Shown here: in pieces, positions 17,744-35,424 of the stretch | Layout: every line of letters starts with the position of its first letter | How positions within the stretch are numbered: position 1 is the first letter of the stretch | From: Bacteroidota bacterium | GTDB lineage: Bacteria > Bacteroidota > Bacteroidia > J057 | Assembly: GCA_043751755.1 (NCBI GenBank) | Contig: JAYUZN010000717.1 | Location: 1 to 35,424, forward strand | Direction: 5' to 3' | Length of the DNA stretch: 35,424 bases | Program-made: the position numbers and the translations under genes | The notes under the pieces: model-generated | What the model was told of the DNA's origin: nothing | What the model saw: the letters and a program-made list of their open reading frames with translations, nothing else | Database searches by the model: none

Positions 17744-20728
17744 ATGACCAATATCAAATATCTCTCCATTTTCCTTTTGTGTGTGGCACTCTCTATAAGT
17801 GCCTCCGAATCCTCGAATATTACCGATTCTATTCATTTTTTGAAATATAAAAACCATGCTGCAGACGAAACACAATGGGCTGATAGTGTGCTACTTACCC
17901 TTTCTACCAAACAAAAAATAGGGCAACTGATGATGACTGCTGTCTTTGGTAGGGAAGAGGGCGGACAGGACATTGAAACCCGTAATTTGATAGAAAACTA
18001 CCATATTGGCGGACTTATTTTTATGAAAGCTGACCCTGCCATACAGGTAAACCTCACGAATCGTTACCAAAATTATGCTCGTCTGCCTTTGATGATTGCG
18101 CAAGATGCGGAATGGGGTATGAATATGCGTATGCCGAATGTTATTCGCTATCCGCACAACATGACTTTGGGCGCGATTCGCAATGATTCACTTTTGTATA
18201 AAATGGGTTTGATGATTGGCGAACAATGCAAAACGGTGGGCGTGCAAATCAATTTTGCCCCTGTGGTAGATGTGAATAACAATCCTGCGAATCCCGTCAT
18301 TGGCGACCGTTCTTATGGCGAAAATAAGTTCAATGTGGTGCGCAAAGCATGGATGTTTAGCAAGGGAATGATGGACAAAAATATCCTGCCTTGTGCCAAA
18401 CATTTTCCCGGACATGGCGATACAGACACCGATTCGCACAAGGATTTGCCCACAATTCCGTTCACAAGGGAGCGTTTAGATACGGTCGAGCTATATACTT
18501 TCCAAAAAATGGTGGAATATGGTATGCCTTCTATGATGGTTGCGCATTTGTTTATTCCTGCCTTAGACCCTACGCCCAATCGCCCTTCTACGCTTTCTCC
18601 CCTGATAATCAATGACTTGCTGCGGAAACAAATGCACTATGATGGGCTGGTTTTTACAGATGCACTCAATATGCAAGGAGTCGCAAAGTATTATGCCCCT
18701 GGTGAAGTGGAATTGTTGGCATTTAAGGCGGGAAATGATGTTTTGTTATATTCGCAAGATATTCCAAAAGCTGTGAGCCGTATTGAGTTGGCTTTGCAAA
18801 GCAAGGAAATCACGCAGGAGGACTTAGATGCAAAAGTGCTAAAAATCCTCAAAACCAAATATCGTCTTGGCTTAAACAAAAGACCTTCTACGCCGTATGG
18901 CGGCACATTGGAATATCTCAATTCTGGACAATCCAAAAGCCTTAAAAAAGAATTGTTTGAAGCGGCGGTTACTTTGGTCAAAAATGAAGGAAAACTTGTG
19001 CCTTTGAATTCTTTGGAAGGTTTGAACATTGCCTACGTACAAATTGGCGGCACAAAAGGAAATACTTTTTCCCGCACTTTGCAAAAATATGCCTCCGTAA
19101 AAGTCTTCAATTTGCCCAAAAACCCTACAGGAGAACAAGTTTCAAGCACTTTGAAAACCTTGCGCAGCTTCACAACGGTGATTGTGGGCGTGTTTGATGT
19201 GGAAAAAAAGATAGCTACGAATTTTGGAATAGATGGAATGACAAGCAACTTTTCTAAGCAATTAGCCGCAATTCCCACTATAAATACGATTTTATGCACC
19301 TTTGGCAGCCCCTATAGTTTGCGGAGTTTTGGCACAGAAAAGGCTGTTTTTTGTGGCTATGAGGAAGACGAAGATGCGCAAAGAGCCGTAGGTGCTGCGA
19401 TTTTTGGCGGGCTGATAGTAGATGGGCAGTTGCCTGTAACGGCTTCTGCGCAGTTTAAAGAAGGCATGGGCGAAATTATTCCTGTGGTTACCCGTTTTGG
19501 CTTTGCCCTGCCCGAAGAGTTGCAAATGAATAGCTATGTCTTGAACAAAATAGATTCTGTGGCAAATGCCTGTTTTCAAAGACGGGCGGTTCCGGGTTTT
19601 GCGGTAGCGGTTATGCGCCGCAACAAAATTGTGTATGAAAAGGGCTTTGGCAAGACGGATTATAGCCTTGCCGCTGATTCTATAGACCCGCTTTATGCTA
19701 TGTACGACATCGCTTCTGTAACAAAAGTGGTGGTAACTACGACTTTGGCAATGCACTTGGTAGAAAATGGTATGTTAGATTTGGATAAAACTATTTCTGA
19801 TTATTTGCCTGAATTTAAAAATAGCAATAAATCCTCCCTCACTGTGCGGGAATTGTTGCAACATACGGCGGGCTTAAAGGCTTGGATTCCTTTTTATTTG
19901 GACACTTACGAGGCAGGAAGTAAAACGCAACTGCGCAGAGATTTGTACAAAACAGAATATAGTGAATCCTATAACATAGAGGTTGCCCCTCGTTTTTACT
20001 TGAATCATACTTATAAAGATAGCATTTGGCAAAAAATCATCCACTCGGAAGTAGGTCCTCGCAGCCATATGGTTTACAGCGATTTAGGGGTCATTATTAC
20101 AGGAAAAATAATTGAAAGCATTGTAGGAACGTCTTTAGATGACTATTCTTGTACCAATTTCTACCAACCTATGGGCATGTCAAACACTATGTTCAATGCA
20201 GGACAAAAGGGCTATGCGCGTTTTTGCGCACCTACGGAAATAGATTCTGCTTGGCGACACAATGTATTGAAAGGCTATGTTCACGACCCTGCTTGTGCCA
20301 TGTTTGGGGGCGTTACGGGGCATGCCGGGCTTTTTTCCAATGTCTATGATTTGTGCAAATGGGCATTTATGATAAAAAATGGGGGCATTTATGGCAGTCG
20401 TGTGTATCTTGACGAGGCGACTATCAAAAATTGGACTTCCAAACAGGTGAGTTATAGCCGCAGAGGAATCGGCTGGGACAAGCCTAATTCTGACCCTGAC
20501 AGGTCGGGGCAGGTGTCGGGCTATGCGTCAGATGAGGCTTACGGGCATTTGGGCTTTACGGGTACTTCTGTTTGGATTGACCCCAAATATGACCTTGTTT
20601 TTGTGTTTCTTTCTAATAGAACCTATCCTTCTTCGCGCCGCACCTTGTTCAACAAGCTGCATGTGCGCAAGGAGGTGATGGATTTAGTGTATGAGTCTAT
20701 GATGAAAAAAGGGAAAATGGAATTGTGA
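17744..20728 (+). CDS. periplasmic fusion protein: GH3 beta-N-acetylhexosaminidase (NagZ-like) + class C beta-lactamase-fold serine hydrolase
   Basis: 994 aa with a signal peptide. The N-terminal half carries GH3 motifs ('KHFPGHGDTDTDSH', 'FTDALNM'). The C-terminal half has the SxxK motif 'DIASVTK' and the beta-lactamase/PBP fold. Confidence 0.85.
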   Translation: MTNIKYLSIFLLCVALSISASESSNITDSIHFLKYKNHAADETQWADSVLLTLSTKQKIGQLMMTAVFGREEGGQDIETRNLIENYHIGGLIFMKADPAIQVNLTNRYQNYARLPLMIAQDAEWGMNMRMPNVIRYPHNMTLGAIRNDSLLYKMGLMIGEQCKTVGVQINFAPVVDVNNNPANPVIGDRSYGENKFNVVRKAWMFSKGMMDKNILPCAKHFPGHGDTDTDSHKDLPTIPFTRERLDTVELYTFQKMVEYGMPSMMVAHLFIPALDPTPNRPSTLSPLIINDLLRKQMHYDGLVFTDALNMQGVAKYYAPGEVELLAFKAGNDVLLYSQDIPKAVSRIELALQSKEITQEDLDAKVLKILKTKYRLGLNKRPSTPYGGTLEYLNSGQSKSLKKELFEAAVTLVKNEGKLVPLNSLEGLNIAYVQIGGTKGNTFSRTLQKYASVKVFNLPKNPTGEQVSSTLKTLRSFTTVIVGVFDVEKKIATNFGIDGMTSNFSKQLAAIPTINTILCTFGSPYSLRSFGTEKAVFCGYEEDEDAQRAVGAAIFGGLIVDGQLPVTASAQFKEGMGEIIPVVTRFGFALPEELQMNSYVLNKIDSVANACFQRRAVPGFAVAVMRRNKIVYEKGFGKTDYSLAADSIDPLYAMYDIASVTKVVVTTTLAMHLVENGMLDLDKTISDYLPEFKNSNKSSLTVRELLQHTAGLKAWIPFYLDTYEAGSKTQLRRDLYKTEYSESYNIEVAPRFYLNHTYKDSIWQKIIHSEVGPRSHMVYSDLGVIITGKIIESIVGTSLDDYSCTNFYQPMGMSNTMFNAGQKGYARFCAPTEIDSAWRHNVLKGYVHDPACAMFGGVTGHAGLFSNVYDLCKWAFMIKNGGIYGSRVYLDEATIKNWTSKQVSYSRRGIGWDKPNSDPDRSGQVSGYASDEAYGHLGFTGTSVWIDPKYDLVFVFLSNRTYPSSRRTLFNKLHVRKEVMDLVYESMMKKGKMEL

Positions 20729-28436: not shown

Positions 28437-28862
28437 ATGGATTTACTTTCTCAAATAGAAGCCGCTCAAGGCAAAAAAATAAAGCCCATAAATGCCAAAA
28501 AGCGTTATGGCAGAACTTGTGCGAAAATTATAATAGATTTTGCGCTGCCTTTTATGCCCAAAAACGGCGCAAATAGTGATATAGAAACCATTTATACAAT
28601 TTCGATGATTGCCTGGAATATTGCTTTGATGCCCCTTGAAGCGCAGGAAAATTACATAGAAAGAACGGTAGATGAAACGGAAATGGGCAGGCACCCCGAA
28701 ATGATAGCGAATATTTATGTGATGATAGAACGAAAAAAGCAACTTTTTGCCCAATATGACTTTCAAGTCGCGGATTATGAGCTACAATTTTTGGACAAAA
28801 CACAGGAGATATATTTGGAAGTGATAGGGATAGACGCACCTAAGTTGAAAGTTGATAGTTAA
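28437..28862 (+). CDS. hypothetical protein
   Basis: A 141-aa ORF downstream of the sigma factor with no TM segment and no recognisable motif. Its last codons are encoded by an AAGTTGA repeat. Confidence 0.5.
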   Translation: MDLLSQIEAAQGKKIKPINAKKRYGRTCAKIIIDFALPFMPKNGANSDIETIYTISMIAWNIALMPLEAQENYIERTVDETEMGRHPEMIANIYVMIERKKQLFAQYDFQVADYELQFLDKTQEIYLEVIGIDAPKLKVDS

Positions 28863-28922
28863 AAGTTGATAGTTACCCATTTCTTAATTTTCAATTCTCA
28901 ATTTTTCATTTTCAATTCCCTC
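28842..28922. repeat. AAGTTGA(A/T)AGTT word repeat plus TTCTTAATTTTCAATTCTCAATTT leader block
   Basis: 28842-28874 encodes the last residues ('KLKVDS') and the stop of the 141-aa ORF. 28888-28911 is a 24-mer identical to the one upstream of rpmF. Confidence 0.8.
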
Positions 28923-29228
28923 ATGCTTCTTCGTATCGTTCGTATGGAATTTCAGCCCGAAAAAGTGTCCGATTTTTTGGCAATTTTCAATCAAAGTAAA
29001 CAGCAAATACGGATTTTTCAAGGCTGTGAATATTTGGCATTACATACAGATGCCACAAACCCTCATGTTAGATACACATATAGCAAATGGGAATCCGAAG
29101 AAGCTTTGAATTTATATAGAAATAGCCCCCTTTTTACCCAAACTTGGGCAGCTACCAAAGCCTTGTTTGCCGCAAAACCACAAGCGTTTTCTTTATATTT
29201 AGCCGACGAAGTGAATCGTTATACTTAA
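28923..29228 (+). CDS. antibiotic biosynthesis monooxygenase (ABM)-fold protein
   Basis: The ATG at 28923 gives a 101-aa protein, 'MLLRIVRMEFQPEK...YSKWESEEALNLYRNSPLF', typical of small ABM/dimeric alpha-beta barrel proteins. Confidence 0.65.
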   Translation: MLLRIVRMEFQPEKVSDFLAIFNQSKQQIRIFQGCEYLALHTDATNPHVRYTYSKWESEEALNLYRNSPLFTQTWAATKALFAAKPQAFSLYLADEVNRYT

Positions 29229-29245: not shown

Positions 29246-29306
29246 GTAAATTTTCGTGTAAACAGGTCATTTCTTTAAGAAATGAGCTGTGTACAAGAAA
29301 ATTTTA
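29246..29306. repeat. long hairpin element AAACAGGTCATTTCT (family copy 2)
   Basis: 'GTAAATTTTCGTGTAAACAGGTCATTTCTTTAAGAAATGAGCTGTGTACAAGAAAATTTTA' lies just upstream of the NTPase cassette. Confidence 0.7.
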
Positions 29307-29403: not shown

Positions 29404-29411
29404 TACTTTTG
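29404..29411 (+). promoter_or_regulatory. -7 box TACTTTTG upstream of the NTPase/2-TM cassette
   Basis: TAnnTTTG, 28 nt upstream of the ATG at 29440. Confidence 0.5.
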
Positions 29412-29439
29412 TATAATAATTCGGATAAAAACAGCTAAC

Positions 29440-30258
29440 ATGGATTTTTTTACCGCAATAGGTGCGATAAGTTCAGGTATTGCCATTTATGATAAAGCCA
29501 ATTCTCTTTCAAATCAAGTGAAAAAGATTGTCAAATGGCTCAAAAAAGGCAATACAAAAATCGTTATAATGGGTGCAGGCGGAACAGGTAAAACTACGCT
29601 TGCCCACTTTTTGACGAATAACCCTGCCTATAAAGAACTGAATTACAGCCAAACACATACTGATGAGAAGATAAATATAGGCGGAAATACGATAGGAAGT
29701 TATTGGATTGCACCAGGGCAAGCAGAAAGTCGAGAACGTTACTTTCCTGAGATGTTTAGAGAAATTGCGAATGGAAAGGTTTGCGGCATTATTCATGTCG
29801 TTTCCTATGGTTTTCATAGCATAGACGCTCAATTGAGCCTACAAGGAATGTTGCATTACAGAGAAGGTATGCCTGATGTGGAATATTTAGCAGCCTTGCA
29901 AACCCATAACCGAGCAACAGAGCTATCTATTCTCCAAGAGTTGAAACACAGAATAAAAGATTCTCCGCAAAAAATATGGCTGATAACCTTAGTCTTGAAA
30001 CAAGATTTGTGGTGGGCAGAAAAGGAAAAAGTGCAGGAGTTTTATACAAAAGGAGCCTATTCTACGGAAATAGCAGAAATCGCACAACAAAAGGGAAAAC
30101 AACATTTTGAACATCATTATGTTTCGGCTTCTGTTATCTCCCACAATTTTTCTATAGCAGGAAAAATATTTCAGCCTATAACACAAGGTTATGACGAAGC
30201 CTTGCGCATTGCCAATCTCAATGGTTTTATCACACAACTAAAGGCTTTTTTACACTAA
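29440..30258 (+). CDS. divergent Ras-like (TRAFAC) P-loop NTPase, uncharacterised
   Basis: 272 aa. It has the P-loop 'GAGGTGKT' (aa 45-52), the switch II-like 'WIAPGQ' (aa 89-94) and the G4-like 'VLKQD' (aa 185-189). The N-terminus has a small-residue zipper 'AIGAISSGIAI'. Confidence 0.7.
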   Translation: MDFFTAIGAISSGIAIYDKANSLSNQVKKIVKWLKKGNTKIVIMGAGGTGKTTLAHFLTNNPAYKELNYSQTHTDEKINIGGNTIGSYWIAPGQAESRERYFPEMFREIANGKVCGIIHVVSYGFHSIDAQLSLQGMLHYREGMPDVEYLAALQTHNRATELSILQELKHRIKDSPQKIWLITLVLKQDLWWAEKEKVQEFYTKGAYSTEIAEIAQQKGKQHFEHHYVSASVISHNFSIAGKIFQPITQGYDEALRIANLNGFITQLKAFLH

Positions 30259-30264
30259 AAGACA

Positions 30265-30744
30265 ATGGCAGAATTATTGACAAATACCACAATACAGGAT
30301 AATAGCGACTTGGATAGGGTCGCGGATTTGCTGAAAGATTATACAATAGATACAGAGAAGAAATATGAGGAATTAAATAAAATCAGTAAATTTCATTTTA
30401 ACATATCTTATTTGCTGTTTGTTTGCCTCATTGTTATGACTATTTTTACCGTTTATAATATATCTCACCTTATTACAATTACTGAAAGTATAATATTCTT
30501 TGTATATGTTATGTTAGTGGCTTTTTTGGGTCTATATATATGGAACAGTAATCCTAAAGATAGAAAAAATAAAACAGAATTAATAGACTCCCTTCAAATC
30601 TCTCGCAAACGCCTATCAGAAGTCATGAAGTTTGCCAGCCAATATCTTGAAAATAAGGAACTTACCGACATTCGCAGATTTGAATTAAAACTCTTACTTT
30701 CAGACGCAGATGCTATTTACCTCAAATCAGAAAAATATGTATAG
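30265..30744 (+). CDS. small two-transmembrane-helix protein, uncharacterised
   Basis: 159 aa, starting 6 nt after the NTPase stop. Two adjacent hydrophobic helices (about aa 46-65 and 68-93) are flanked by charged helical regions. The gene is very AT-rich. Confidence 0.65.
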   Translation: MAELLTNTTIQDNSDLDRVADLLKDYTIDTEKKYEELNKISKFHFNISYLLFVCLIVMTIFTVYNISHLITITESIIFFVYVMLVAFLGLYIWNSNPKDRKNKTELIDSLQISRKRLSEVMKFASQYLENKELTDIRRFELKLLLSDADAIYLKSEKYV

Positions 30745-30780
30745 AAGTTCGGCGGGTTTTTAGAAACCCGCCGAACTTTT
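30745..30780 (+). terminator. strong intrinsic terminator after the NTPase/2-TM cassette
   Basis: 'AAGTTCGGCGGGTTT-TTAG-AAACCCGCCGAACTT' has a 15-bp stem and runs into TTTT. It starts immediately after the stop at 30744 and ends about 13 nt before the next ATG. Confidence 0.75.
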
Positions 30781-30792
30781 AAGGGTAAAATC

Positions 30793-32934: not shown

Positions 32935-33364
32935 CCGTTGGGTTGTTTTTTCAAACTGAACAAAGGCTGTACTTCATTTTCATCGAAAAACTGTTTTTTA
33001 CATAATTAGAAAACGTTGAATCTTGAGTTAAAGATAAGAAACCTGCGAAAATAAGCCAAATCCTATCCTTTTCTTACCTATCAAAAAAGTGAACAAATAG
33101 GCTATTTATTACATTAAAAAAAGCGCATTTTAGAATATATAAATATTCTAAAATGTGCATATTTATGTAGTATATTTATGATATATCTATAATTTATATA
33201 ATATGTACTATTATTTTAGTGTAATATCAGATTCTCAATACTTTTTGGCATATATTTTGTAAATACAATAAAACGTAGCAAAATACGTAAAATCTAACTT
33301 TTCTATATTCGTTCTTGGAGTACTTTTTTTAGACAGAACAATCTCTCAATTATTATTTTGTATC

Positions 33365-35424
33365 ATGCGACCAACAACCACTTTCTTTTTATTTTTCATT
33401 TTTTGTGTTTCTGTTAAAGCAAATCATATTTTTATAACAAACAATGGCAATGGCACAAAGGCGGGCAATAGCTGGGCAAATGCCAAAGAAGGAGCGACTT
33501 CTTTAAACAGCCTTATTGCAGCAGCAAATGCAGGCGATTCTTTATTTATTGCAGAAGGGCAGTATATTCCGAGCGCAAATATCAATGTGGCTGCGGCTAT
33601 CAATCTCAAATCGGGCGTGAGCCTTTTTGGGGGCTTTCCAACGCCTTCTGCCAACATGCTCAACCCTACTTGGGCAAATAGAAATGCCCATTTGTATCCT
33701 ACTATCTTGTCGGGCGACATTGACAATAACGACTGGGATAGCGACAATGACCCTTATACACAAATCGCAGATGACATCATAGGTTCAAATAGCAACAATG
33801 TGCTTATTCTTCCTGCGGCAACCGCAAATGTCCTTGTGGACGGGTTTATTATTTCGGGGGGAGATGCGAAAACGGGCAATGGCGGCGGAATTTACAGTGA
33901 TTACAATGCTGCAGTTACCTTCAAAAACTGTTTTATAACAGGCAACAAAGGCACTCAAGGCGGCGGATTGTACAACTACTTTTCTCACCCTAATTCTTTG
34001 GTTATAGGCTGCACTTTTTCAGGCAATTTTGCCAATGACGGCGGGGCTGTTTTTAACCACGCAAATTCAAAAACGGCTTTCAAAAAATGTATTTTTTCTG
34101 AAAATATAGCGAATAACAATGGCGGTGCAATCGCCAACAACTATTCAAGTGTTATTACTATTAGCGGCAGTATTATCAACAATAACACAGCAGCTTTTGG
34201 CGGCGGAATTTACAACTATACTTCTTCTATCAATATTTTAAATAATGTAATCGTAGAAAACAATGGCACAAATGGTGGCGGAATTTACAATTACAATTCT
34301 TCTACCCTTATTTCAAACTGCACAATAGCAGGCAATTACGTAGTTTCAAATGGCGGCGGCATCACAAATGCAGGCAATAGTTCGCCCAAAATCAGAAACA
34401 GCATTTTGTCTGGAAATGCCACAAATGATATGTGGAATATGGCTGCTTTTACGCCTTTACTTTACAACTCTATCGTTTCTATCTATAATAACAATGTCTG
34501 CACAAGCTGCCCTGGCAATGCTGGACACACAGACCCACAATTTGTAAACCTTGCAAACGCAAAAGGCGCGGATAATATTTGGATGACAAATGATGATGGT
34601 TTGCGCTTGAAGCCCTGTTCGCCGGCTATCAATGCTGGCAACAATTTGTTGATTCCTGCGAGCATCACGACTGATGCAAAAGGCGTTGCGCGTGTTCAAC
34701 AAATCATTGTGGATTTGGGGGCGTATGAGATGTTGGATTTTGGTGGTGCAGGCTACAATTCTACAACAGATGCTGCTAATCAAAGCCTTATGGCAAACGA
34801 AGAATGTATAGATGCAAATGGCTGGACACATTATTACGATACAACGAGCAAAAAAGTAGTGCTTTCTTTGTTCAAAAATGGCTATGATATTGGCAGCATA
34901 AATGACGGGGTTTTTACGGTTTCGTCTAATACAACCAACAATTATGGCACAGGTCAAGGCACAATTATCAATGCTCCTTATACTTTAACAGGCGACTTTG
35001 TAGCCATGAATCGTTGGTGGAATGTAACGCCTCACCCACAACTTCCGCTTGGAAATACAGGCGTGAAAGTGCGCACTTATTTTACAAATGCAGATACAAC
35101 AGATGTAAATGGCTCTATTCCCGGCATTAACAATGATATTACGATTCCTGAACTTCATTTCTACAAAATAAACGACTATAACACAAGCCTCAATCCTGAC
35201 GGAAACCCTGCTACAGCGGACGCACATGCAGGGGTAGATATGGCACAGGCTTACGATGAACCCGGCTACTGGCAATATGATTTTGGGGTAACTTCTTCTA
35301 CTTCTACTTGGGCTTTGGGCAAGTTCAACAACTTGAAATTTGCAGAGTACGAAATCGCAAAATTTTCGGGTGGCGGCGGCGGGTTTTCGGGCGCAAAAGG
35401 GCAGGTTTTTCCTGTAGAATTATT
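33365..35424 (+). CDS. secreted right-handed parallel beta-helix repeat protein (partial, open at 3' window edge)
   Basis: This ORF is not in the ORF track because it has no stop. I translated it by hand from the ATG at 33365 to the window end (about 686 codons) and found no stop. It has the signal-like 'MRPTTTFFLFFIFCVSVKA', repeated 'N.GGGIYN' units every 22-25 aa, and a 'TDAKGVARV...DLGAYE' cap motif. Confidence 0.75.
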   Translation, partial: MRPTTTFFLFFIFCVSVKANHIFITNNGNGTKAGNSWANAKEGATSLNSLIAAANAGDSLFIAEGQYIPSANINVAAAINLKSGVSLFGGFPTPSANMLNPTWANRNAHLYPTILSGDIDNNDWDSDNDPYTQIADDIIGSNSNNVLILPAATANVLVDGFIISGGDAKTGNGGGIYSDYNAAVTFKNCFITGNKGTQGGGLYNYFSHPNSLVIGCTFSGNFANDGGAVFNHANSKTAFKKCIFSENIANNNGGAIANNYSSVITISGSIINNNTAAFGGGIYNYTSSINILNNVIVENNGTNGGGIYNYNSSTLISNCTIAGNYVVSNGGGITNAGNSSPKIRNSILSGNATNDMWNMAAFTPLLYNSIVSIYNNNVCTSCPGNAGHTDPQFVNLANAKGADNIWMTNDDGLRLKPCSPAINAGNNLLIPASITTDAKGVARVQQIIVDLGAYEMLDFGGAGYNSTTDAANQSLMANEECIDANGWTHYYDTTSKKVVLSLFKNGYDIGSINDGVFTVSSNTTNNYGTGQGTIINAPYTLTGDFVAMNRWWNVTPHPQLPLGNTGVKVRTYFTNADTTDVNGSIPGINNDITIPELHFYKINDYNTSLNPDGNPATADAHAGVDMAQAYDEPGYWQYDFGVTSSTSTWALGKFNNLKFAEYEIAKFSGGGGGFSGAKGQVFPVEL

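Follow-up and report, generated by a model that had tools for sequence, protein, structure and literature searches.

The window considered here is a 35,424-nucleotide stretch of DNA from a Bacteroidota bacterium (GTDB lineage Bacteria; Bacteroidota; Bacteroidia; J057; assembly GCA_043751755.1, contig JAYUZN010000717.1, forward strand), and its subject is a cassette of two open reading frames (ORFs): ORF1, which encodes a Ras-like small GTPase, and ORF2, which encodes a helical partner with a predicted transmembrane (TM) hairpin (Table 1). The pair is a translationally coupled, co-evolving and mobile two-gene unit that occurs in membrane and soluble subtypes. The reading preferred here, at a probability of roughly 45%, is that the cassette is an autonomous and horizontally mobile operon encoding a heteromeric GTPase switch, which would act at the membrane as an accessory stress or conflict module. 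A first-pass annotation of the same DNA, made from its letters alone, had described the cassette as a candidate abortive-infection system composed of an NTPase sensor and a membrane effector. The two-gene unit and the GTPase of that description have largely held up, whereas the effector that it assigned to ORF2 has not.

The ORF1 family of small GTPases

ORF1 belongs to a large family for which the curated libraries have no model. A word-indexed homology search had returned only 8 relatives of ORF1 and left ORF2 seemingly an orphan, a result superseded by exhaustive HMMER searches and the mining of individual loci. The exhaustive profile search recovers 1,246 clusters at 50% identity with E ≤ 1e-3, and 326 at E ≤ 1e-30, whose members are nearly all 265-290 aa in length (~275) and align with one another end to end. 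Comparison of 100 diverse members with Pfam, NCBIfam and PADLOC returned no curated family beyond generic P-loop similarity, the PADLOC model mad8 being matched by 6 of the 100 at 1e-4, and ORF1 itself produced only P-loop-level matches (E ≥ 0.0018) among the 5,027 models of PADLOC-DB v2. The Pfam family Gtr1_RagA matches ORF1 weakly across the whole G domain, and the NCBIfam model small_GTP does so at 2.7e-4. EutP/PduV (PF10662) was considered and rejected as an assignment: although ORF1 scores 23.5 bits, above the cut-off of 21, only profile positions 2-38 of 143 are matched, namely the P-loop, in a match that is shared by 5 of 8 members and is accompanied by no microcompartment genes nearby. 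Membership of a well-characterised housekeeping GTPase family, which would have spoken against a defence role, was found by neither Pfam, NCBIfam nor Foldseek.

The order and spacing of the GTPase motifs recognised in the first-pass annotation are borne out. The sequence GAGGTGKT (aa 45-52) conforms to the Walker A signature GxxxxGK[ST], with G45 and K51 invariant across 100 sequences; WIAPGQ (aa 89-94) follows ~40 aa beyond G1, and VLKQD (aa 185-189) ~95 aa further still. The canonical G3 motif DxxG(Q), with its Walker-B Asp, is missing family-wide, the Asp position being held by V, I, A or T in nearly all members, and the Gly and Gln are kept. The [NT]KxD motif of G4 is recognisable across 156 sequences as TKQD (82), NKQD (11) or SKQD (13), and the LKQD of the window keeps K187 and D189. 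That ORF1 is a divergent TRAFAC GTPase, as first described, agrees with the Foldseek, hhalign and motif evidence alike. The Leu of its G4, which had been counted as part of that divergence, is instead a trait of the window's subclade against a family consensus of canonical TKQD/NKQD, and absence of the G3 Asp characterises the family as a whole. Across the family, the motifs read G[APS]GG[VT]GK[ST] for G1, [VI]xPGQ for G3 and [TNSA]KQDLWW for G4, with a family-specific NVVS[YW]GYHS after strand 4 and, past the last core strand, a conserved Ser that is a candidate G5. A candidate for the switch-I (G2) residue is S/T72, located in a YxE[ST]xxxE stretch whose alignment to T35 of Ras is imprecise, and E76 is a candidate substitute for the absent Walker-B Asp.

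In the AlphaFold2 model of ORF1 (pLDDT 75, pTM 0.79), an N-terminal helix of 35 residues precedes a core of the TRAFAC type, in which a long stretch at aa 146-174 forms a helical insert; the strands at aa 41-45, 76-80, 83-88, 116-121, 179-185 and 223-229 follow the TRAFAC order, with beta2 and beta3 as an antiparallel hairpin adjoining the P-loop strand. The N-terminal helix is predicted to dock on the membrane or on the partner. Searched against the PDB with Foldseek, the model retrieves Sar1/Arf, Gtr1/RagA, G-alpha and Rho structures at a probability of 0.95-1.0, with TM-scores of only 0.3-0.45; Arf/Sar1 and Rag/Gtr1 provide the best matches (E 4e-6 to 1e-3, probability 1.0). An hhalign comparison of the family profile with H-Ras gives a probability of 94% over G1 to G3. 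ORF1 and the Arf/Sar1 and Rag/Gtr1 proteins bear G1, G3 (GQ) and G4 ([NT]KxD) in a common order, and the hydrophobic or amphipathic N-helix of ORF1 recalls the membrane-inserting helix of Arf/Sar1. In contrast, the sequence similarity of ORF1 to these proteins lies under every curated threshold, the G3 of its family is hhPGQ, devoid of the Walker-B Asp, where theirs is D[VC]GGQ, a helical insert of ~50 aa bearing VVSYGYHS follows strand 4, and the N-helix is twice as long. The profile and structure comparisons concur, and on both ORF1 is a genuine yet distinct Ras/Arf/Rag-like TRAFAC GTPase that belongs to no characterised housekeeping family.

A few members of the family depart from this plan. 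One protein of 602 aa (P0129) carries, in place of the N-terminal helix of the GTPase, a fused PNP_UDP_1 phosphorylase/nucleosidase domain (E = 2.4e-12), and an N-terminally truncated protein of 350 aa (P0144) is also among these rare fusions. Domains of the PNP_UDP type serve as effectors in several conflict systems, and the arrangement may represent an effector fusion. Two Clostridia metagenome-assembled genomes (MAGs) carry tandem GTPase paralogues of 279-285 aa each, followed by a single partner gene (L069, 3116-5560; L085, 9974-12436), which suggests a heterodimeric arrangement of G domains in that lineage. Second matches to the family hidden Markov model (HMM) at several loci were traced to fragments of frameshifted genes, to an unrelated ABC-F ATPase, or to these true tandem GTPases. 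Two long ORFs, of 594 aa (L092) and 372 aa (L055), bear no Pfam domain in their extensions and are probably over-extended in GC-rich DNA.

The helical partner and its coupling to the GTPase

ORF2 is a member of an obligatory partner family comprised of an N-helix, a TM hairpin or short soluble linker, and a C-terminal helical hairpin. When the contigs of ORF1 homologues were inspected one by one, a small ORF was present directly downstream in every case, and these ORFs have in common an LLxEY helix at the N-terminus and an ASQxxEH...ELxLRLAEAE module at the C-terminus. The partner at one such locus (L007) is without TM segments, and that at another (L005, 8806-9309) overlaps the stop of the GTPase gene and was uncalled in the source annotation. 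A broader sample was drawn from a scan of 185,579 species genomes by one peptide pattern, [LVI][VI]xKQDLWW, which yielded 86 confirmed loci, of which 80 were retained; the figure of 86 is a lower bound because the scan relied on that single pattern. A homologous partner lies directly 3' of the GTPase in ~73 of the 80 loci, spanning at least eight phyla. By its HMM, the partner is recognised in the ORF directly downstream in 64 of the 74 loci with an identified GTPase ORF, and the remainder mostly carry it under other ORF boundaries. The co-occurrence of a two-TM partner with ORF1 homologues, one of the checks proposed in the first-pass annotation, is thereby found almost without exception, with the amendment that the partner is often TM-less. 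The two genes are mostly separated by gaps of -19 to +26 nt (6 nt in the window, both on the + strand), and pairwise distances among the GTPases mirror those among the partners (Mantel r = 0.60, with 0 of 500 permutations as high). No third component is conserved near the pair; the recurrent neighbours, generic Ser/Thr kinases and ABC ATPases, occupy varying positions and were rejected as candidates.

The two hydrophobic helices first noticed in ORF2 are readily located (Table 1), and the Lys/Arg clusters on both of their cytoplasmic flanks predict an N-in/C-in TM hairpin. The AlphaFold2 model of the protein (pLDDT 78) is composed of four long helices, in which the N-helix is continuous with the first TM helix, the second TM helix is continuous with the third helix, and the fourth folds back. 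Residues L117, S125, Q126, L143 and L145 are invariant in the partner alignment. Against the PDB, the model returns only generic coiled-coil and designed-bundle matches, all with E > 0.1, and profile searches of the PDB are likewise empty; ORF2 has no significant match in the sequence and profile libraries, and Pfam assigns no domain at all to its 19 database homologues. The likeness to SLATT proteins that had been suggested for ORF2 consists of two adjacent TM helices with flanking cytoplasmic helices, and it did not withstand comparison: the PADLOC model RTasSLATT touches 1 of 57 partners, the ORF2 of the window itself (E = 0.022), Pfam finds no SLATT in 6 partners or in the 19 homologues, and the conserved part of the ORF2 family is its soluble helices and not the TM pair.

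The partners fall into two subtypes, ~34 with a TM hairpin and ~24 that are soluble, 120-145 aa in length and mainly from Planctomycetota. As the hairpin is absent from this whole clade, the conserved part of the partner is the cytoplasmic helical module, and the earlier view of the hairpin as the effector part has to be given up. The GTPases differ in step with their partners: the maximum 15-residue hydrophobicity of the GTPase N-helix has a median of 1.17 alongside TM partners (n = 34) versus 0.13 alongside soluble partners (n = 24; Mann-Whitney p = 5e-9), a covariation that mostly separates the two clades and a p value that ignores phylogeny. The N-terminus of ORF1 in the window (DFFTAIGAISSGIAIY) is among the most hydrophobic. 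At the level of sequence, the comparison shows that membrane character has been gained or lost jointly in the GTPase and its partner.

The mechanism proposed for the pair would begin with a complex in which the N-helix of ORF1 packs on a helical stalk formed by the three cytoplasmic helices of ORF2. In the membrane subtype, the hydrophobic tip of the N-helix would lie in or on the bilayer beside the TM hairpin of ORF2, keeping the G domain against the cytoplasmic membrane on its inner side, and GTP binding and hydrolysis would then shift the helical and TM stalk and bring about a membrane change, either permeabilisation or remodelling. Dimerisation of the G domains may take part, as hinted by the tandem GTPases of the Clostridia and by the conserved VVSYGYHS. 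The architecture would, by analogy, be akin to the helix insertion of Arf/Sar1, or to a split and minimal form of the atlastin or bacterial dynamin-like plan. In atlastins, mitofusins and bacterial dynamin-like proteins, this plan comprises a G domain, a helical bundle, a closely spaced TM hairpin and a C-terminal helix, and in the cassette the same elements would be divided over ORF1 and ORF2, with the possible dimerisation of G domains as a further likeness. The analogy has its limits, as the G domain of ORF1 is small and Ras-like, a soluble subtype exists, and neither sequence nor fold comparison links the cassette proteins to the dynamin superfamily. The weakest step of the proposal is the biological role, which would be that of an accessory stress or conflict module, of an abortive-infection or toxin-antitoxin-like kind, rather than a part of core physiology.

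Among the GTPase systems described from bacteria, the DO-GTPase/GAP1 systems resemble the cassette in being novel TRAFAC GTPases of mobile and sporadic operons that are often membrane-proximal and sometimes include two tandem paralogues. Those systems display a conserved Walker-B Glu, frequent Zn-ribbons and a large three-domain GAP1 partner together with GASH or FNIII, count PNPase-type domains and SLATT among their effectors, and hardly occur in cyanobacteria (Kaur et al. 2020, PMC7159879). The cassette was rejected as a member, since its family bears a hydrophobic Walker B, has a helical partner of 120-250 aa as its sole conserved neighbour, counts cyanobacteria among its major hosts, and gives no Pfam DO-GTPase/GAP1 matches. 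The Juk system, which surfaced in the literature through a 'Ras-like GTPase' fusion, is unrelated, JukA being Cbp3-like. No description of this pair was found in the literature on small-GTPase defence systems and neither protein has a significant PADLOC match, in agreement with the first impression that the cassette corresponds to no named system.

Distribution, mobility and competing readings

The confirmed loci belong to Planctomycetota (~28), Cyanobacteria (~18), Proteobacteria (~9), Armatimonadota, Myxococcota, Bacteroidota, Acidobacteriota, Verrucomicrobiota, Chloroflexota and Clostridia. Isolate hosts include Psychrobacter sp. 1Y6, Bradyrhizobium japonicum in8p8, Enhygromyxa salina and Microcystis. 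In the last of these, the pair is found in two species representatives (L028 and L032), and the L032 copy has a disrupted GTPase ORF and a partner cut to 75 aa, through either decay or assembly error. The Psychrobacter copy is 39% identical to ORF1 of the window and thereby no more distant from it than other Bacteroidota copies. Homologues of 57-33% identity lie in unrelated contexts, namely downstream of a HupE/UreJ gene or of a TPR-GerE regulator, adjoining a giant protein, or with a transposase and a type III restriction-modification (R-M) system as neighbours; in this last context (L005, 4413-15189), a 33%-identical homologue has a pair of Transposase_29-family genes on one side and, on the other, a type III R-M pair composed of a ResIII helicase and an N6_N4 methyltransferase. 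The pair is not syntenic across lineages, and it moves as a unit between unrelated chromosomal sites in at least eight phyla. Several MAGs carry two loci, and ~6 of the 80 loci seem frameshifted or truncated, MAG assembly errors being a possible cause. Such a distribution, sparse and patchy, with multiple copies and signs of decay, speaks for an accessory module concerned with conflict or stress.

Several results weigh against an accessory, membrane-acting switch of this kind. At 33 loci of moderate GC content, the great majority of the 144 proteins encoded within ~3 kb of the pair have housekeeping functions (ABC transporters, response regulators, DsbD, sugar epimerases), and the conflict-type neighbours, as raw counts without a background control, amount to Uma2 (6 of 144), one methyltransferase and a few generic PADLOC matches. 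A tblastn search of 72,556 plasmids and 50,697 phages gave no match to the family, and IMG/VR gave a P-loop match and one pattern match only, the latter (L174) being dismissed as chance because it lies inside an unrelated 509-aa phage protein. No empty site was recovered, as exact-protein look-ups of the flanking cysteine desulfurase and ABM proteins gave only cassette-bearing contigs of the same population. With regard to the proteins, the missing Walker-B Asp makes the catalytic competence of ORF1 an assumption, the existence of a clade without any TM segment means that membrane action is not a universal output, and the clade structure underlying the hydrophobicity covariation likewise counts on this side. 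Three further Pfam-annotated contexts are similar to the 144-protein sample, with an occasional HigB-like toxin-antitoxin pair or NADAR gene, and a metagenome scan with the cysteine desulfurase found only relatives of ≤60% identity and no shared synteny. A DsbD_TM/CcdA-like gene adjoins or lies near the pair at several cyanobacterial loci (L182, 10594-11295; L183, 9406-10107; L181, 18792-19532) and accounts for 3 of the 144 neighbours, which is probably vertical synteny inside one cyanobacterial clade with no functional link.

Abortive infection in the form first put forward, in which detection of phage by the GTPase releases ORF2, a SLATT-like pore former with two TM helices, to depolarise and kill the cell, is unlikely. 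The horizontally shaped and patchy spread of the family, the genomes with several copies, the decayed copies and the rare PNP_UDP-GTPase fusion lend a defence role indirect support, and the compactness of the two-gene unit, which is equipped with a promoter and a terminator of its own, the type III R-M system and transposase adjoining one locus, and the weak RTasSLATT match of ORF2 (E = 0.022) point in the same direction. The reading is nonetheless a possible one without backing from the available genomic evidence, because SLATT fails as an identity for the partner (1 of 57 partners, no Pfam SLATT), the TM hairpin is lacking in ~40% of partners and the conserved part is the soluble helices, the neighbours are mostly housekeeping genes, and no plasmid, phage or viral contig, IMG/VR included, was found to carry the family. 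Neither protein is significant against the 5,027 PADLOC models, and the defence-gene enrichment that the first-pass annotation had looked to as a check is not apparent in the raw counts from the 144 neighbours, which give no clear defence-island signal.

A regulatory switch in the style of MglA/MglB, Arf or Rag, serving polarity, motility or the organisation of the membrane and envelope, with the partner as a membrane anchor, GTPase-activating protein or guanine nucleotide exchange factor, is doubtful to a like degree. The nearest folds, Arf/Sar1 and Rag/Gtr1, are themselves regulatory switches, the catalytic-type Gln is retained, and the family is enriched in phyla of complex cell biology (Cyanobacteria, Planctomycetota, Myxococcota and Bacteroidota); the housekeeping neighbours, and the presence of the cassette in all contigs of the window's population, would also suit such a function. 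MglA/MglB offers the precedent of a bacterial small GTPase encoded beside a dedicated partner, and MglA too is without the G3 Asp, a Thr replacing the conserved aspartate according to PMC3000849. The partner of the cassette, however, lies downstream, is often membrane-embedded, and belongs to a novel helical family, whereas the regulators of Arf and Rag are of the Roadblock/longin or Sec7 type. The MglA/MglB module was rejected as an identity for the pair, since hhalign against an approximate MglA sequence aligns the P-loop only, at 20% probability, and the all-helical model of the partner has no Roadblock or longin fold; no MglA structure is among the top 50 Foldseek matches of ORF1. The distribution is also very sparse for a regulator, at 86 loci in 185,579 species genomes (a pattern-limited count) with few Microcystis species representatives positive, the contexts are unrelated even at 57% identity, some genomes hold paralogous copies and others apparent pseudogenes, and no linked signalling or motility genes were found.

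Less probable still is that the pair constitutes a new minimal membrane-acting GTPase machine, an Arf/Sar1-like G domain joined to a TM-hairpin stalk, whose GTP-dependent remodelling or permeabilisation of membranes would underlie an unrecognised immune or abortive-infection system in at least eight phyla, the soluble sister type using the same switch for another output. Least probable is a selfish, toxin-antitoxin-like addiction module, of which one product would be toxic and the other neutralising and which would be kept by post-segregational or anti-loss effects without benefit to the host: the small, translationally coupled unit, its scatter among housekeeping genes like many toxin-antitoxin loci, its multi-copy genomes and frequent decay, and the other toxin-antitoxin or Uma2 genes near some cyanobacterial loci fit this description, but the family was not found on the plasmids or phages where such modules are common, both proteins are much larger and more conserved than typical type I/II components, and neither bears a DNA-binding autoregulator domain.

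The locus in the window and the significance of the pair

In the window, the cassette has the self-contained layout reported at first reading, and hairpins on either side of it mean that it is bracketed by two stem-loops. The 3' hairpin, described earlier as a terminator with a 15-bp stem, is predicted at -30.2 kcal/mol (z = -7.9, with 0 of 200 shuffles equally stable) and ends 12 nt before the ATG of the cysteine desulfurase gene (30793); a consensus terminator scan overlooked it because it has no T-tract. The 5' hairpin is the probable terminator of the upstream operon and the probable left edge of the cassette. It is a 57-nt near-perfect palindrome with a 1-nt loop, far longer than a usual terminator stem. 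The promoter box TACTTTTG is present where it was first noted, and its function is assigned from its position because the motif by itself is weak evidence, TAnnTTTG being only mildly enriched across the window (62 seen versus 45.6 expected). The flanking genes are of the core type, as had also been observed, with prmA, an extracytoplasmic function (ECF) sigma factor gene and an ABM-domain gene on the 5' side, and a class-V aminotransferase/cysteine desulfurase gene and then proC on the 3' side. Searches for tRNA genes, Rfam families and flanking direct repeats revealed neither RNA genes nor an integration site or repeats of the att type.

Table 1. Coordinates of the cassette, its protein features and its flanking signals in the window
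Feature	Position	Strand	Remarks
ORF1	29440..30258	+	272 aa; Ras/Arf/Rag-like TRAFAC GTPase of a large uncurated family
ORF1 N-terminal long helix, aa 3-36	29446..29547	+	First ~17 residues (DFFTAIGAISSGIAIY) hydrophobic and small-residue-rich; AlphaFold2 model
ORF1 G1/Walker A, GAGGTGKTT, aa 45-53	29572..29598	+	G45 and K51 invariant; G48, G50 and T53 nearly invariant
ORF1 G3/switch II, IAPGQ, aa 90-94	29707..29721	+	Walker-B Asp replaced by a hydrophobic residue; Ras-Q61-like Gln retained
ORF1 G4, LKQD, aa 186-189	29995..30006	+	Family consensus [TN]KQDLWW
ORF1 candidate G5, S-A-S, aa 229-231	30124..30132	+	Directly after the strand at aa 223-229; S231 invariant in the alignment; putative assignment
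ORF2	30265..30744	+	159 aa; cognate helical partner with TM hairpin
ORF2 conserved N-terminal cytoplasmic helix, aa 15-37 (DLDRVADLLKDY...)	30307..30375	+	Family motif LLxEYxxKL
ORF2 TM helix 1, aa 45-66	30397..30462	+	Predicted from sequence
ORF2 TM helix 2, aa 76-93	30490..30543	+	Predicted from sequence
ORF2 conserved C-terminal helical hairpin, aa 110-152 (...LSEVMKFASQYLEN...FELKLLLSDADAIY)	30592..30720	+	Signature LxxLxRxASQxxEH...ELxLRLAEAE
Promoter box TAnnTTTG (Bacteroidota -7-type), TACTTTTG	29404..29411	+	28 nt 5' of the ORF1 ATG
Stem-loop terminator	30742..30781	+	Strong; 18-nt arms with 15 perfect pairs
Upstream long hairpin	29248..29304	+	Inverted repeat with 28-nt arms, 89% complementary, just 3' of the ABM gene stop

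The AT-richness remarked upon in ORF2 is real, its GC content of 30.6% being among the lowest 2% of 480-nt windows; its 60-nt lines range from 22% to 42%, where hand counts had first given 18-27%. ORF1 has a GC content of 38.1% and 32% at third codon positions (GC3); the overall GC content is 40.3% in the window and 46.3% in the desulfurase gene. The ABM gene upstream, at 31%, is alike in GC3, which makes the compositional anomaly of the cassette a modest one. Elsewhere in the window, tandem direct repeats of 14 nt (AGTTGAAAGTTGAT, two copies) and 20 nt (CATTTCTTAATTTTCAATTC, two copies) lie at 28843-28918, between a 141-aa hypothetical gene and the ABM gene, and the start of the latter is placed at a TTG at 28866 in the mechanical ORF list and at 28923 in the source annotations (101 aa). 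The lowest GC content of the window (27%, below that of ORF2) is found at 33001-33500, located 5' of a gene for a Por_Secre_tail beta-helix protein, sorted by the type IX secretion system (T9SS), that is seen in L010; the T9SS gene is in keeping with the Bacteroidota origin of the window and supports it. In the Pfam annotation of that identical contig, the 994-aa ORF at 17744-20728 joins a domain of glycoside hydrolase family 3 to a beta-lactamase domain, as a NagZ/AmpH-like fusion that has no relation to the cassette.

Ras-like small GTPases that have a dedicated partner are uncommon in bacteria and little understood, MglA/MglB being the main worked example. What is new here is a family of 1,246 clusters outside the curated libraries, with a G3 devoid of the Walker-B Asp and an obligatory, co-evolving partner that comes in membrane and soluble forms. 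Were the pair an immune or abortive-infection module, a GTPase-switch mechanism would be added to the defence repertoire; were it a membrane-remodelling or regulatory switch, it would represent a minimal bacterial analogue of Arf/Sar1 or atlastin-type machines. With only two small genes, defined motifs and subtypes, and hosts available as isolates, the cassette offers an experimentally tractable start.

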